From positions 1 through 9,345 of IMG/VR virus record IMGVR_UViG_2684622620_000011: a stretch of DNA of 9,345 bases; one strand, 5' to 3'. The first letter of the stretch is position 1. Each line of letters begins with the position of its first letter. Under the pieces are notes generated by a model, which saw only the letters and a program-made list of their open reading frames with translations, ran no database searches and was not told where the DNA came from. Below, one piece after another: positions 1 through 9,345 of the stretch. A program made the position numbers and the translations under genes. This DNA comes from a virus. Its lineage: Duplodnaviria; Heunggongvirae; Uroviricota; Caudoviricetes.

Positions 1-25
1 TGAACCGCCCCGGGTTTCCTGGAGA
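1..25. repeat. Terminal inverted repeat of the left IS copy (orfB-proximal end)
   Basis: TGAACCGCCCCGGGTTTCCTGGAGA matches the reverse complement of 1286..1310 at about 22 of 25 positions; positions 1-13 and 17-25 are identical. Confidence 0.8.
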
Positions 26-42
26 GTGTTTTATCTGTGAAC

Positions 43-933
43 TCAGGCTGCCAGATCATCGTTTCCGATGGAAGCATAATAAGCTTTTTCTGCTTCTGCC
101 GGAGGAGTATGGCCCAGCCTTCCCAGCAATCGTCGATTGTTATACCAGTCCACCCACGTTAGTGTGGCCAGTTCCACTTCTGCACGGTTTTTCCAGCTCT
201 TACGGTGTATTACCTCCGCTTTGTAAAGACCATTGATGCTCTCAGCCATCGCGTTGTCATACGAGTCGCCTGTACTCCCTGTTGATGCCAGTAATCCGGC
301 TTCTTTTAGTCGCTCCGTATAGGCCAGTGACACATACTGAGAGCCTTTATCGCTGTGATGGATGGTGCCAGACGGACGACGGGCCCACAACGCCTGCTCC
401 AGCGCATCCAGCACGAATGTCGTTTCCATAGACGATGAGACCCGCCACCCCACGATGTATCCGGCAAACACATCAATGATAAACGCCACATAGACGAAGC
501 CCTGCCATGTGCTGACGTAAGTAAAATCAGCCACCCACAGCTGGTCAGGTCGTTCTGCCACGAACTGACGGTTTACGCGGTCGCCTGCGGCAACGGCTTT
601 CCGGCTGATGGTCGTACGGACCTTTTTACCCCGGAGAACACCGGCAAGTCCCATAACCGCCATGAGACGTGCCACTGTACATCTGGCCACCCTGATTCCT
701 TCCCGTAACAACTGACGCCAGACTTTACGCACACCGTACACCTGATGATTTTCATCGTATACGCGCTGTATCTCTCTCTTCAGCCAGTCGTCGTGCTGCG
801 CACGGGCACTGCGTTTATCCGGATGATGTCGCTGTTGCTGACAATGGTAATACGTTGACGGGGCAATATGCAGTTCGCTGCATACCGGTCCGACCCCGTA
901 CTGCTCACGCAGCTTATCCAGCAGTGGCATCAT
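43..933 (-). CDS. IS3-family transposase OrfB (DDE/integrase catalytic domain), 296 aa
   Basis: ATG start overlaps the orfA stop by 4 nt (ATGA). Protein shows integrase-core hallmarks (W..DFTY, HSD.GSQY, ...[10 protein letters not shown]). Identical to the ORF at 8413..9303. Confidence 0.9.
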
Positions 934-1256
934 TTTTTCCAGAGGCGGTCGAACTCCGCCTTCGCAAAATAAGCGGAAGCCTGGCGAAGGATATCGTTAC
1001 TGCGGCGCAGTTCACGATTTTCACGTTCCAGCTCTTTCAGACGCTGACGTTCAGCGCTGGTGAGCCCACCATCACCGCCCCCGGTATCCCGCTCATGCTG
1101 GCGAACCCAGACACGCAGAGTCTCCGGCGTACAGCCAATCTTTGGGGCAATGGAACAAATTGCCGCCCACTGTGAGTCATATTCATCCTGACTTTCCAGA
1201 ACCATACGAATCGCCCGCTGACGGACTTCGGGGGAAAAACGAGTATTTTTAGTCAT
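930..1256 (-). CDS. IS3-family transposase OrfA (HTH and leucine-zipper DNA-binding subunit), 108 aa
   Basis: Starts [22 protein letters not shown]... with a helix-turn-helix region and a heptad Leu repeat ([18 protein letters not shown]). Identical to the ORF at 8090..8416. Confidence 0.9.
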
Positions 1257-1285
1257 CCTGTTTACCTCTTTCTCAGGGAGTTTAG

Positions 1286-1310
1286 TCTCCAGGATTTCCG
1301 GGGCGGTTCA
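1286..1310. repeat. Terminal inverted repeat of the left IS copy (orfA-proximal end)
   Basis: Reverse complement reads TGAACCGCCCCGGAAATCCTGGAGA, an imperfect match to 1..25. Confidence 0.8.
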
Positions 1311-1619
1311 AATTGAAGTAAGTTCATTTTTAGGTGAAGGAGTGATATCTTCGCTTCCAAAGATCATATCTTGGTATTGTGCCCAATTTTGGCGAATTTC
1401 GAAATACATATCAACATCATAATCCTGCCCTCTTAGTTCATCATCTGAAGATATATTCAATGTCTTTTTGAGACCGATGATGTTAAAGATCCACTTCTTA
1501 CCACCTTTAATGAAGTATGCCCCAGTATATGCCTCTTCATCTGGTACAGCCTCATAACCTAAATTTAATGCTAATTGTATCTGTTCTGCTAATGTAAAAG
1601 GCTCTTTCCATCCACTCAT
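1308..1619 (-). CDS. Hypothetical small protein (103 aa as read), probably 3'-truncated by the IS insertion
   Basis: ATG at 1619..1617 with an AGGTAGGT Shine-Dalgarno-like sequence upstream. The in-frame stop TGA is formed by the last 3 nt of the IS terminus (1308..1310), so the native C-terminus is probably missing. AT-rich codon usage like the neighbouring 221-aa gene. No recognisable domain. Confidence 0.55.
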   Translation of the reverse strand: MSGWKEPFTLAEQIQLALNLGYEAVPDEEAYTGAYFIKGGKKWIFNIIGLKKTLNISSDDELRGQDYDVDMYFEIRQNWAQYQDMIFGSEDITPSPKNELTSI

Positions 1620-1707
1620 AGCTTATTACCTACCTGTGAACCTGTTTGCTGCATGAAAAACAATATAATAAAGCGTTATTGAAGACTATGATCCAAGTAA
1701 ATTTAAT

Positions 1708-1730
1708 CAAATACGTTTATAACGTATTTG
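1708..1730. promoter_or_regulatory. Perfect 10-bp inverted repeat with a 3-bp spacer (CAAATACGTT-TAT-AACGTATTTG), candidate operator
   Basis: Arms 1708..1717 and 1721..1730 are exact reverse complements. It lies about 90 nt upstream of the 1619 start codon, in the 320-bp intergenic region between the two AT-rich genes. Confidence 0.35.
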
Positions 1731-6971: not shown

Positions 6972-7382
6972 TCACGCCCCTTTCTTTGCTATCGGAGTGA
7001 TGGAACTCAGCAGCAGGCGACAGCGACCAGGCGCACCAATGCGCTGTCCGGTTATCTTGTCGTAAGTTTCATGCGGTGAGGCACACCAGGTTGTCGCTGT
7101 TTCGTGGAGTTTCACTTGCCGCTCACCATTTCTGCGAATCGCGATCCCGGTGTGCGTTTTGCCCTTACGTTTCACTGCTGGCGCTGCGGCTACGGATGCC
7201 TGACGGGCAGGCTGAGCTGGTGTTGAAAAATTGCCTGCTTTGGGTCTTAGTACAAAAACCGCACGAGTGCGCGCACGTGGCCCGGCGTTCATATTCCACA
7301 AAATGACGTCGAGATAGTTTTTACCGTCGTCTATGTGTCCTTTGTCCGACGGGTACTCTAATTTGCCTGAAATGGTGGTCAT
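6972..7382 (-). CDS. Hypothetical phage protein, 136 aa
   Basis: ATG at 7382 with GAGGAAAG Shine-Dalgarno sequence 7 nt upstream; begins 38 nt after the helicase stop. Basic, Ala/Arg-rich central region. No recognisable domain. Confidence 0.6.
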   Translation of the reverse strand: MTTISGKLEYPSDKGHIDDGKNYLDVILWNMNAGPRARTRAVFVLRPKAGNFSTPAQPARQASVAAAPAVKRKGKTHTGIAIRRNGERQVKLHETATTWCASPHETYDKITGQRIGAPGRCRLLLSSITPIAKKGA

Positions 7383-7420
7383 TGGTCTTTCCTCGGTTAT
7401 TTCACGCTGGTCATGCGTGG

Positions 7421-8035
7421 TTAAAATGGGTCCGTATTAAAGTTTTTGTTTGAATACCGTTTTTCACGTTTTCTCGGTTGCTCTGCCTCCTTCTGGATGC
7501 GTATTTTTTCGCGTGCTACGTGTTGATCAATTGGCAGGAAATGCCCATTCCGGAATTCCTGATAAATAATTTCACCTGCCCCGCCAGAACGGTTTTTACC
7601 GATAATCACCTCGGCGATACCCTTTGCAGGTGAATCAGGTGTGTAAACTTCATCGCGGTACAAAAACAAAATGCTGTCAGCGTCCTGCTCAACACTGCCG
7701 GAATCGCGCAGGTCCGACATCACCGGGCGACGCTGGCCAGCAGGTCGAGAATCCACCTGGCGGGAAAGCTGGCTAAGAGCAAAAACAGGGGTATGCAGAC
7801 GCATGGCCATAGTCTTCATGTTGCGGGAGATATGCCCGACAGCGAGATCGTGGCGCTCGGCCTTCGGTTTTTTGATCAGGCCCATGTAATCAACACCAAT
7901 CAACTTCAGGTGCGGATAACGGCGTTTATGAGTCTCTGCAATGGCGCGGATCTGCTCAATCGTCAAATCAGTGGCATCAACAATCCAGATATCGCGATCC
8001 TGCATGATTGCAAGCGCGGCGGTTAATCTGGTCAA
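7421..8035 (-). pseudogene. DnaB-family replicative helicase, C-terminal fragment only; 5' part removed by the IS insertion
   Basis: Translation carries DnaB/P22 gp12-type C-terminal motifs (DYMGLI, FALSQLSR, SDLRDSGSVEQDADSILFLYRDEVY, GIAEVIIGKNR) but no Walker A. The open frame runs up to the IS boundary at 8035/8036; the 'start' in the ORF track is a TTG artefact. Confidence 0.8.
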
Positions 8036-8060
8036 TGAACCGCCCCGGAAATCCTGGAGA
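8036..8060. repeat. Terminal inverted repeat of the right IS copy (orfA-proximal end)
   Basis: TGAACCGCCCCGGAAATCCTGGAGA is an imperfect inverted match to 9321..9345. Confidence 0.8.
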
Positions 8061-8089
8061 CTAAACTCCCTGAGAAAGAGGTAAACAGG

Positions 8090-8416
8090 ATGACTAAAAA
8101 TACTCGTTTTTCCCCCGAAGTCCGTCAGCGGGCGATTCGTATGGTTCTGGAAAGTCAGGATGAATATGACTCACAGTGGGCGGCAATTTGTTCCATTGCC
8201 CCAAAGATTGGCTGTACGCCGGAGACTCTGCGTGTCTGGGTTCGCCAGCATGAGCGGGATACCGGGGGCGGTGATGGTGGGCTCACCAGCGCTGAACGTC
8301 AGCGTCTGAAAGAGCTGGAACGTGAAAATCGTGAACTGCGCCGCAGTAACGATATCCTTCGCCAGGCTTCCGCTTATTTTGCGAAGGCGGAGTTCGACCG
8401 CCTCTGGAAAAAATGA
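8090..8416 (+). CDS. IS3-family transposase OrfA, 108 aa
   Basis: ATG at 8090 with AAAGAGG ribosome-binding site. Identical protein to 930..1256 (minus strand). Confidence 0.9.
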
Positions 8417-9303
8417 TGCCACTGCTGGATAAGCTGCGTGAGCAGTACGGGGTCGGACCGGTATGCAGCGAACTGCATATTGCCCCGTCAACGTATTACC
8501 ATTGTCAGCAACAGCGACATCATCCGGATAAACGCAGTGCCCGTGCGCAGCACGACGACTGGCTGAAGAGAGAGATACAGCGCGTATACGATGAAAATCA
8601 TCAGGTGTACGGTGTGCGTAAAGTCTGGCGTCAGTTGTTACGGGAAGGAATCAGGGTGGCCAGATGTACAGTGGCACGTCTCATGGCGGTTATGGGACTT
8701 GCCGGTGTTCTCCGGGGTAAAAAGGTCCGTACGACCATCAGCCGGAAAGCCGTTGCCGCAGGCGACCGCGTAAACCGTCAGTTCGTGGCAGAACGACCTG
8801 ACCAGCTGTGGGTGGCTGATTTTACTTACGTCAGCACATGGCAGGGCTTCGTCTATGTGGCGTTTATCATTGATGTGTTTGCCGGATACATCGTGGGGTG
8901 GCGGGTCTCATCGTCTATGGAAACGACATTCGTGCTGGATGCGCTGGAGCAGGCGTTGTGGGCCCGTCGTCCGTCTGGCACCATCCATCACAGCGATAAA
9001 GGCTCTCAGTATGTGTCACTGGCCTATACGGAGCGACTAAAAGAAGCCGGATTACTGGCATCAACAGGGAGTACAGGCGACTCGTATGACAACGCGATGG
9101 CTGAGAGCATCAATGGTCTTTACAAAGCGGAGGTAATACACCGTAAGAGCTGGAAAAACCGTGCAGAAGTGGAACTGGCCACACTAACGTGGGTGGACTG
9201 GTATAACAATCGACGATTGCTGGGAAGGCTGGGCCATACTCCTCCGGCAGAAGCAGAAAAAGCTTATTATGCTTCCATCGGAAACGATGATCTGGCAGCC
9301 TGA
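8413..9303 (+). CDS. IS3-family transposase OrfB (DDE catalytic subunit), 296 aa
   Basis: In the -1 frame relative to orfA; start overlaps the orfA stop (ATGA). Identical protein to 43..933 (minus strand). Confidence 0.9.
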
Positions 9304-9320
9304 GTTCACAGATAAAACAC

Positions 9321-9345
9321 TCTCCAGGAAACCCGGGGCGGTTCA
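9321..9345. repeat. Terminal inverted repeat of the right IS copy (orfB-proximal end)
   Basis: Reverse complement reads TGAACCGCCCCGGGTTTCCTGGAGA. Confidence 0.8.

Follow-up and report, generated by a model that had tools for sequence, protein, structure and literature searches.

Two copies of an insertion sequence (IS) lie in inverted orientation at the ends of the stretch of DNA analysed here (the window, 9,345 nt), raising the question of whether the segment between them moved into place as a unit or whether the two copies arrived separately. The window is a complete draft contig, LECG01000026.1 (9,345 bp), of E. coli O103:H2 PARC445. An earlier note had described two identical, inverted copies around a 6.7-kb segment, with outward-pointing transposase genes and with the window ending exactly at the IS termini, and this description is borne out. 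The two arms, each of 1310 nt, are 100% complementary, with 6,725 nt between them. Because the left copy lies on the minus strand and the right one on the plus strand, their transposase genes face outward and each copy turns its IRL towards the cargo. The annotated IS629 of phage VT1-Sakai (AP000400.1) has the same ends and is identical at 1309 of 1310 positions. Most probably, the two copies inserted independently, and at different times, in the early region of an O103:H2-lineage prophage.

Judged by sequence, both arms are IS629/IS1203 elements of the IS3 family, complete as assembled, and represent an isoform of this element rather than a new IS. Each arm is bounded by imperfect terminal inverted repeats of 25 nt (22/25 matching, TGAACC...GGTTCA), and encodes a 108-aa orfA product with an HTH_Tnp_1 domain next to a 296-aa orfB product of the rve/DDE type (rve, rve_3 and HTH_21 matches). 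The two reading frames overlap at an ATGA, where an A-run is found, and in both arms an ALIL frameshift pseudoknot spans this overlap, with a score of 121.5 bits (gathering score 50). It is the combination of a length of about 1.3 kb with TG...CA repeats, a frameshifted orfA/orfB pair and near-identity to the reference element that places the arms in IS629/IS1203. In addition, the left arm is a 100% match to at least 25 copies labelled 'IS1203 family' among the RefSeq matches listed, and related IS3-family copies in S42 and ETEC1738 carry the RefSeq label 'programmed frameshift'. The arms resemble IS629/IS1203 of EHEC and Shigella in their 1,310-bp length, 25-nt TG...CA repeats, orfA/orfB -1 frameshift and ALIL pseudoknot, as well as in the preference for prophages and, for the right copy when the window is read together with a sibling assembly, in the 3-bp target duplication; the element itself is no different, and the insertion sites alone are lineage-specific. 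For IS629, target duplications of 3-4 bp have been reported, with prophages housing 62% of the copies (PMC3271280).

Table 1. Features of the window, with positions in nucleotides
Feature	Position	Strand	Remarks
IS629/IS1203, left copy	1..1310	-	IRR 1-25, orfB 43-933, orfA 930-1256, ALIL frameshift pseudoknot 859-975, IRL 1286-1310
5' part of phage hypothetical gene (134 aa), cut by left IS	1308..1619	-	102 native codons and one junction codon
AAT, presumed 3-bp target duplication of left IS, inner copy	1311..1313		Empty site GGTA/AAT/TGAAG in L001
GIY-YIG/T5orf172-domain phage gene, 221 aa	1940..2605	-	In low-GC moron-like stretch
LprI-family lipoprotein gene, 307 aa	3634..4557	+
ORF6N-domain anti-repressor gene	4735..5571	-	RefSeq form 262 aa
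C4 antisense RNA with a1/b1 targets and IsrK match	5575..5772	-	Upstream of anti-repressor gene; RF01695, RF03163 and RF01394 matches, each above gathering score
Small phage early genes	5796..7382	-	phrog_340, phrog_2241, D5-like regulator, theta-like protein, phrog_5148
3' part (codons 260-463) of prophage DnaB-like replicative helicase gene	7421..8035	-	DnaB_C match; cut by right IS
CAA, 3-bp target duplication of right IS, inner copy	8033..8035		Empty site GGT/CAA/ATC in L001 and L002
IS629/IS1203, right copy	8036..9345	+	IRL 8036-8060, orfA 8090-8416, orfB 8413-9303, ALIL pseudoknot 8371-8487, IRR 9321-9345

On sequence grounds, the 6,725-bp middle of the window belongs to the early part of a Rac-like lambdoid prophage and still sits in its native context (Table 1). 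Comparison with the prophage of APEC20/16, in which no IS interrupts the segment and both target genes are whole, gives 99.955% identity (2 mismatches, 1 gap), and there are 0 differences across 6,725 nt to the related contigs L002 and L004. A PADLOC search of the cargo for a defence system or selectable function returned only weak ORF6N-domain matches, and a scan for promoters and terminators at the left junction gave results at chance level.

How much can be read from the IS copies themselves is constrained by the way in which the contig was made. The PARC445 data (BioProject PRJNA277539) consist of HiSeq 100-bp read pairs from 300-bp inserts, assembled with ABySS 1.3.4, and because such reads and inserts are too short for a 1.3-kb repeat, the two arms are almost certainly one and the same collapsed repeat. 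The sequencing design suggests a mechanism in which ABySS would walk from the unique 6.7-kb segment into a single collapsed IS node on both sides and would halt at the graph branch represented by the far IS end, creating IS-terminal contig ends and perfect identity. Arm identity and end positions are to be expected from such an assembly and are not independent observations on two physical copies; the short reads back only the first 100-300 bp or so of the IS beside each junction, with the full length being the assembler's inference. Given that the window is a whole contig with a collapsed repeat, the identity of the arms and the IS-terminal ends are uninformative on the age of the insertions. 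The suggestion of the earlier note that identity indicates recent transposition is thus unsupported; the same 1310-bp sequence is, moreover, found at 100% identity in O157:H7, O111 and further lineages. Other repeat-bounded de Bruijn contigs likewise begin and end at the far edge of a repeat that is present in several copies and exceeds the insert size, with identical arms. In the relatives, Logan and SPAdes-type contigs end 28-29 nt or 127 nt inside the same IS; here ABySS would have retained the full repeat at both ends in place of a k-1 overhang.

Further evidence comes from the junctions. In the case of the right copy, the interrupted gene encodes a DnaB-like helicase of 463 aa that is found whole in L001, L002 and L004. 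The inner-right junction of the window is modelled as ...TAATCTGGTCAA/TGAACCGCCCCGGAAATCC, and the corresponding outer junction, IRR/CAA/ATC, is present on contig L008 of a sibling assembly, GCA_002531455.1, as ...GATTTG/TGAACCGCCCCGGGTTTCC, with a flank 100% identical to L002 over 3,587 nt. The 3-bp CAA duplication predicted for this copy is therefore seen on both sides, the inner CAA in the window and the outer one, followed by helicase sequence, in the sibling. Consistent with this, of six models (0-5 bp duplication) for the helicase N-terminal product running into the IRR, the 3-bp model alone is represented in the protein collection, by a 260-aa product that ends in ...DDEDL and is followed by the TGA of the IS. 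One assembly (protein prefix PDV68) encodes both this product and the truncated product of the left junction. GCA_002531455.1 is linked to PARC445 by identical flanks, by the 103-aa left-junction product, and by WP_054627242.1, a RefSeq protein accession numbered near those of PARC445-derived proteins. We infer an identical outer-right junction in PARC445 itself, where the expected arrangement would be ...GGAAACCCGGGGCGGTTCA/CAAATCCTCATCG, with CAA duplicated.

The inner-right junction was not recovered from GCA_002531455.1. Exact look-up of the inner-right helicase fragment in its 204-, 194- and 246-aa forms returned no IS-truncated record, and the fragment is on record solely as a 226-aa form with an ATT start, from PARC445 only. 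Matches to the 204-aa form on two unrelated metagenome contigs were set aside, as they reflect a nonsense mutation with no IS. A homology search with the helicase N-terminus found nothing above 76% identity, even though the collection searched holds an exact match to the truncated product.

The left copy lies in the gene for the 134-aa hypothetical phage protein, at an inner junction modelled as ...CCGGGGCGGTTCA/AATTGAAGTAAG, and the stop codon of the truncated gene is the terminal TGA of the IS. The exact 103-aa product of this junction is present on seven contigs, including L002 and L004, both of which end in the left IRL junction after ...CAATT yet encode the 463-aa helicase. The presence of the left IS junction together with an intact helicase in two relatives implies that the two insertions were separate events. 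The left insertion, common to relatives with an intact helicase, would be the older, and the younger insertion would have split the helicase gene at codon 260, adding the 3-bp CAA duplication. Relatives in which the helicase is whole include SRR33975075 and SRR6112177. In principle, the right IS could once have been present in the relatives that lack it and have been removed by precise excision; excision of IS629 promoted by IEE exists in O103:H2 (PMC9943667).

On its outer side, a simple insertion of the left copy with duplication of AAT, which is what the inner junction suggests, should appear as ...CTGCAGGTCATGGTAAAT/TGAACCGCCCCGGGTTTCC, with flanking DNA ...CAGGTCATGGTAAAT. This outer junction was absent by junction and exact-pattern searches of collections lacking this lineage. 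Likewise, the partial ORFs expected at a contig edge had no exact protein record, either with a 26-32-nt IS overhang under 0-, 2-, 3- and 4-bp duplication models or with a 127-nt overhang under 0-5-bp models; the look-ups recovered the positive control PDV68730.1, and ORFs so short are seldom called as genes. In O157 Sakai the left-junction match seemed to run on for another 22 nt, which was dismissed as a chance similarity beside the yehQ copy of IS629. The claim of the earlier note that each copy interrupts a different gene holds at both ends. The gene remainder that it expected beyond each IS is seen on the right, where the helicase continues in the sibling assembly; on the left the outer flank was never found.

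The two insertion sites are lineage-specific. Searches for the left inner junction covered 5,426 complete E. coli genomes together with phage records, plasmids, species-representative genomes, IMG/VR contigs and JGI metagenomes, and found it in none; the right inner junction was likewise missing from the same 5,426 genomes, from species-representative genomes and from viral contigs. No record of the collections searched contained 80% or more of the window.

The arrangement of a segment bracketed by two identical IS copies is suggestive of a composite transposon, mobilised as a single piece in the past or at present, and the geometry is indeed that of Tn10 and Tn5, in which an inverted pair of the same IS encloses a few kilobases. 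The likeness ends there, and movement as a unit is rejected. There is no unit-wide duplication with unrelated flanks, since CAA brackets the right IS only and the interrupted helicase gene carries on in the outer-right flank; the IS-cargo-IS unit occurs at no second locus in the collections searched; and the cargo is not foreign, being made up of ordinary phage early genes without selectable function, in native prophage order (99.96-100% identity). Relatives, moreover, possess only one of the two copies. IS3-family transposition normally pairs an IRL with an IRR, whereas here an IRR would lie at both outer ends. A composite transposon is accordingly extremely improbable, and the independent insertions favoured by the earlier note are upheld by the colinear cargo, the left junction with intact helicase in two samples, and the outer-right CAA. 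For the left copy considered singly, an unlikely alternative is that it marks an IS-mediated deletion or rearrangement, in which case the outer flank would be something other than the final 31 codons of the 134-aa gene, and AAT would not be duplicated. The outer-left junction was found by no route, matching duplications accompany only 21 of 47 IS629 sites in O157 genomes (PMC3271280), and in the homologous S42 prophage an IS3-family element is associated with a loss that starts at the anti-repressor N-terminus and takes in the helicase and immunity region. However, the searches reached only junctions that are called as proteins or that lie in collections lacking the lineage, making absence a weak argument; the inner-left junction sits at a clean position in the 134-aa gene, and the right copy of the same lineage is a simple insertion. 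It is very unlikely that one or both full-length arms are unreal, with a junction continuing into an incomplete IS or a different variant of IS629 and the contig merely having been joined to the consensus IS node by the assembler. While 1,310 bp is beyond verification by 100-bp reads with 300-bp inserts, and IS629 subtypes 4-5% apart coexist in some genomes (PMC3271280), the two ends of the right copy each adjoin one half of the same target and are flanked by a proper duplication (the IRL in the window and the IRR in L008, where 127 nt are identical to the window IS), and the left IRL junction recurs in three independent runs.

Separate insertion leaves the question of orientation. Inverted IS copies are a substrate for RecA-dependent inversion, and with a 1.3-kb inverted pair 6.7 kb apart, the source culture could hold the segment inverted relative to native order, or in mixed orientations, through homologous recombination; a draft contig fits either orientation equally, and the lineage is represented by short-read contigs only. 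Such inversion is usually rare within a population, and none of the complete genomes searched has both copies; we regard it as quite unlikely here. All four junction sequences stay as they were when identical inverted IS copies recombine with each other, so that swapped target duplications could be recognised only by linkage across the 1.3-kb IS, and draft contigs of the outer flanks could not reveal an inversion. It is highly improbable that the IS629 pair acts as a recurrent switch that flips the 6.7-kb early segment relative to the phage early promoters, creating a heritable two-state prophage. If true, the C4-RNA/anti-repressor module, the LprI lipoprotein gene and the nin-like genes would be differently expressed in the two states. 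A switch exceeds the trivial expectation of rare inversion isomers.

Two independent insertions, then, amount to ordinary erosion of a prophage by IS629, a kind of event that is already known. As in the decay that IS elements cause in lambdoid prophages of STEC, for instance by IS629 in the Sakai prophages, the IS breaks an essential phage gene, here that for the DnaB-like helicase; the related prophages of S42 and ETEC1738 have other IS3-family insertions or deletions in this early region. That phage function is lost is in this case deduced from gene disruption: the split helicase should leave the prophage replication-incompetent, and replication has probably been lost. The significance is small beyond bookkeeping, and what is useful is a lesson in method. 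Identical IS copies placed exactly at both ends of a window may simply mean that a short-read contig stopped at a collapsed repeat. In that event the sequence does not tell whether the copies are identical and of full length, or in which orientation state they are, and inversion between such copies is invisible in junction sequences alone. The locus adds a further example of prophage erosion by IS629 in non-O157 E. coli, with the phage replicative helicase gene split.

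The window begins and ends with the same element in inverted orientation, the two arms (1-1310 and 8036-9345) of 1,310 nt each being 100% reverse-complementary and separated by 6,725 nt in a repeat search of the window. In each arm, the 25-nt terminal inverted repeats match at 22 of 25 positions (TGAACCGCCCCGG(GTT/AAA)TCCTGGAGA), orfA and orfB overlap at an ATGA preceded by a run of A, and an ALIL frameshift pseudoknot scores 121.5 bits against a gathering score of 50. With the left copy on the minus and the right copy on the plus strand, transcription of the transposase genes is directed outward, and the IRL end of each copy points towards the middle. 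An earlier note's description of an identical, inverted, outward-reading pair is correct as far as it goes. Judged by sequence match, the inserted element is the known element IS629/IS1203, IS1203 being an isoform of IS629. Many RefSeq copies with the annotation 'IS3-like element IS1203 family' match all 1,310 bp at 100% identity; they come from O157:H7, O111 and further lineages, sit on plasmids as well as chromosomes, and occur at as many as 40 or more locations in one record. A single position distinguishes the window's copy from the IS629 of phage VT1-Sakai (AP000400.1; 1,310 bp, 25-nt end repeats annotated), and the ends are the same. Target duplications made by IS629 are 3-4 bp long, and prophages hold 62% of IS629 copies in O157 genomes (PMC3271280).

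An exact-product look-up with the truncated ORF at 1308-1619 identified the window as the complete contig LECG01000026.1 (9,345 bp) of E. coli O103:H2 PARC445, assembly GCA_001309675.1. This strain was sequenced with 100-bp paired reads from 300-bp inserts and assembled with ABySS 1.3.4 (PMC4563881), a design that cannot span 1,310 bp. From either unique junction the assembler would pass into the one collapsed IS node and halt at the graph branch, the far IS end; in relatives assembled with other software, contigs reach 28-29 nt (Logan) or 127 nt (SPAdes-like) into the same IS. That the window ends exactly on IS termini therefore stands as a position, but not as a biological signal, since both this and the perfect identity of the arms are properties of the assembly. 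The step from identity to recent transposition is not supported for the same reason; distant lineages share this very sequence, so that identity would anyway say little about recency.

The middle segment, 1311-8035, belongs to a Rac-like lambdoid prophage, of which it forms the early region. The prophage of E. coli APEC20/16 has the segment without interruption at 99.955% identity (2 mismatches, 1 gap), flanked by the Q/lysis side and the immunity/integrase side; neither target gene is cut there, and the empty sites read GGTA-AAT-TGAAG (left) and GGT-CAA-ATCCTC (right; hyphens mark boundaries).

Features of the two IS copies and of the prophage segment, in window order
Feature	Coordinates	Strand	Remarks
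orfA, one per arm			108 aa; HTH_Tnp_1
orfB, one per arm			296 aa; rve, rve_3, HTH_21
Truncated hypothetical gene			134 aa; first in segment
GIY-YIG/T5orf172 gene	1940-2605		221 aa; second
LprI lipoprotein gene		opposite to others	third
ORF6N anti-repressor gene and upstream C4 antisense RNA/IsrK module	4735-5772	minus	PHROG anti-repressor match for the gene
C4 antisense RNA	5575-5660		RF01695
IsrK match	5685-5759		RF01394
a1/b1 targets	5720-5772		RF03163
Several small phage genes			between anti-repressor and helicase
DnaB-like helicase gene			3' 204 codons; last

The C4 RNA, a1/b1 and IsrK matches lie directly upstream of the anti-repressor gene, a module of the P1/P7 type found here within a lambdoid prophage. 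Relative to the window, APEC20/16 has a substitution at 1549, an A/V difference in the 134-aa protein, and a 1-nt indel at ~2057 in the GIY-YIG gene, which is annotated as 188 aa there versus 221 aa in the window and in the homologous prophage of S42. GC content is 33-40% over 1311-3500, a stretch in which the GIY-YIG gene lies and the LprI gene begins, versus about 45-55% in the rest of the segment and about 55% in the IS; this low-GC stretch looks moron-like.

For the right copy, duplication lengths of 0 to 5 bp were modelled by reading the helicase 5' part into IRR, and of the predicted products only that of the 3-bp model is present in the protein collection (WP_054627242.1, PDV68729.1), with 260 aa ending in DDEDL before the IS TGA. 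The outer-right junction is carried by a contig of a sibling assembly, NWSD01000043.1 (...GACGATGAGGATTTG-TGAACCGCCCCGGGTTTCC), whose flank is 100% identical over 3,587 nt to a relative's contig (SRR33975075) and whose 127 nt of IS are identical to that of the window. In window orientation it reads IRR-CAA-ATCCTC, and the inner-right junction of the window reads GGT-CAA-IRL. Window and sibling assembly combined, the right copy reads as a simple insertion with the CAA duplication that the earlier note predicted, and the expected helicase remainder lies beyond it, the outer side being read in the sibling assembly, which is distinct from PARC445. Identical flanks, a further 'similar place' and a RefSeq accession numbered near PARC445-derived proteins suggest that PARC445 has the same outer-right junction. 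The 103-aa product of the left junction is likewise among the proteins of the sibling assembly (PDV68625.1). The right inner junction was absent from complete genomes and species-representative genomes. In the sibling contig, the prophage integrase gene adjoins a Peptidase_M90 (MtfA-like) gene (559-2653), which suggests the chromosomal attachment region of the prophage.

The terminal TGA of IS629 serves as stop codon of both cut genes (window 1308-1310; sibling contig 10781-10783), giving products of 103 aa (left gene) and 260 aa (helicase N-terminal), so that exact-product look-ups can be used as junction signatures. A large homology search with the helicase N-terminus returned nothing above 76% identity, yet the exact sequence sits in a 202-member cluster of that collection; this search seems to leave out near-identical clusters.

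The proposal of two separate insertions, each cutting a different gene, is borne out by the colinearity with the uninterrupted prophage and by Logan contigs of two relatives, from SRR33975075 (16 kb) and SRR6112177 (8 kb), whose cargo is identical at 6,725 of 6,725 positions. Both contigs end in the left junction of the window, ...CAATT-TGAACCGCCCCGGAAATCC (IRL end), and both have an intact, uninterrupted helicase gene of 463 aa; the left insertion is thus found without its right-hand counterpart and is most simply taken to be the older. Precise loss of the right IS from these relatives is less parsimonious; IEE-promoted excision of IS629 is known in O103:H2 (PMC9943667). On the left side, an IS-associated deletion instead of a simple insertion is possible, because the outer-left flank (expected ...GGTAAAT-IRR) was not found in pattern scans of metagenome and viral contigs, nor by exact look-ups of sixteen predicted edge ORFs that recovered the positive control. 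Matching duplications occur at only 21 of 47 IS629 sites in O157 (PMC3271280), and in the S42 prophage a large deletion of the early region accompanies an IS3-family element. The left inner junction was absent from complete genomes, plasmids, phage records and species-representative genomes.

A composite transposon moved as a unit was doubted in the earlier note and is contradicted on five counts: the cargo is native to its context, the CAA duplication brackets the right IS alone, relatives carry a single IS, the IS-cargo-IS unit was not found elsewhere, and the cargo has no selectable gene. An inverted pair of identical IS copies is a substrate for RecA-dependent inversion. Exchange within the copies would leave all four junctions unchanged and alter only the linkage of outer flanks to cargo ends, so the draft contig is compatible with either orientation, and the earlier note's duplication test for inversion requires reads or PCR products spanning the entire IS.

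The right insertion splits the helicase gene at codon 260, with the N-terminal domain and the Walker A region on one side and most of DnaB_C on the other, and would most likely abolish prophage replication, going by the gene disruption. In two ENA metagenome contigs (L006, 1125-1150, and L007), substitutions (GAA ATG to CAA TAG) divide the same gene into 254 + 204 aa, placing a stop four codons upstream of the IS629 target codon, with the 659 nt downstream 100% identical to the window; this may be an independent inactivation. Three unrelated short contigs (SRR28073241, ERR2367541, and GCA_053619455.1, labelled Citrobacter freundii) end <=2 nt from the IS629 target, two in ...GATTTGAC and one in ...GATTTG, breaks that exact-length look-up favours; the last contig (L011) stops right at the insertion point and may reflect the same IS junction. 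Homologous prophages of E. coli S42 (5926-7996) and ETEC1738 (3714-4927) have other IS3-family insertions in the same early region, S42 retaining a remnant integrase-core fragment and having lost a segment that begins at the anti-repressor N-terminus and takes in the helicase and immunity genes.

What the window shows is a routine case of prophage decay driven by IS629 in an E. coli O103:H2 strain, viewed through a short-read contig that is bounded by repeats, and IS629 prophage decay of this kind is already known.
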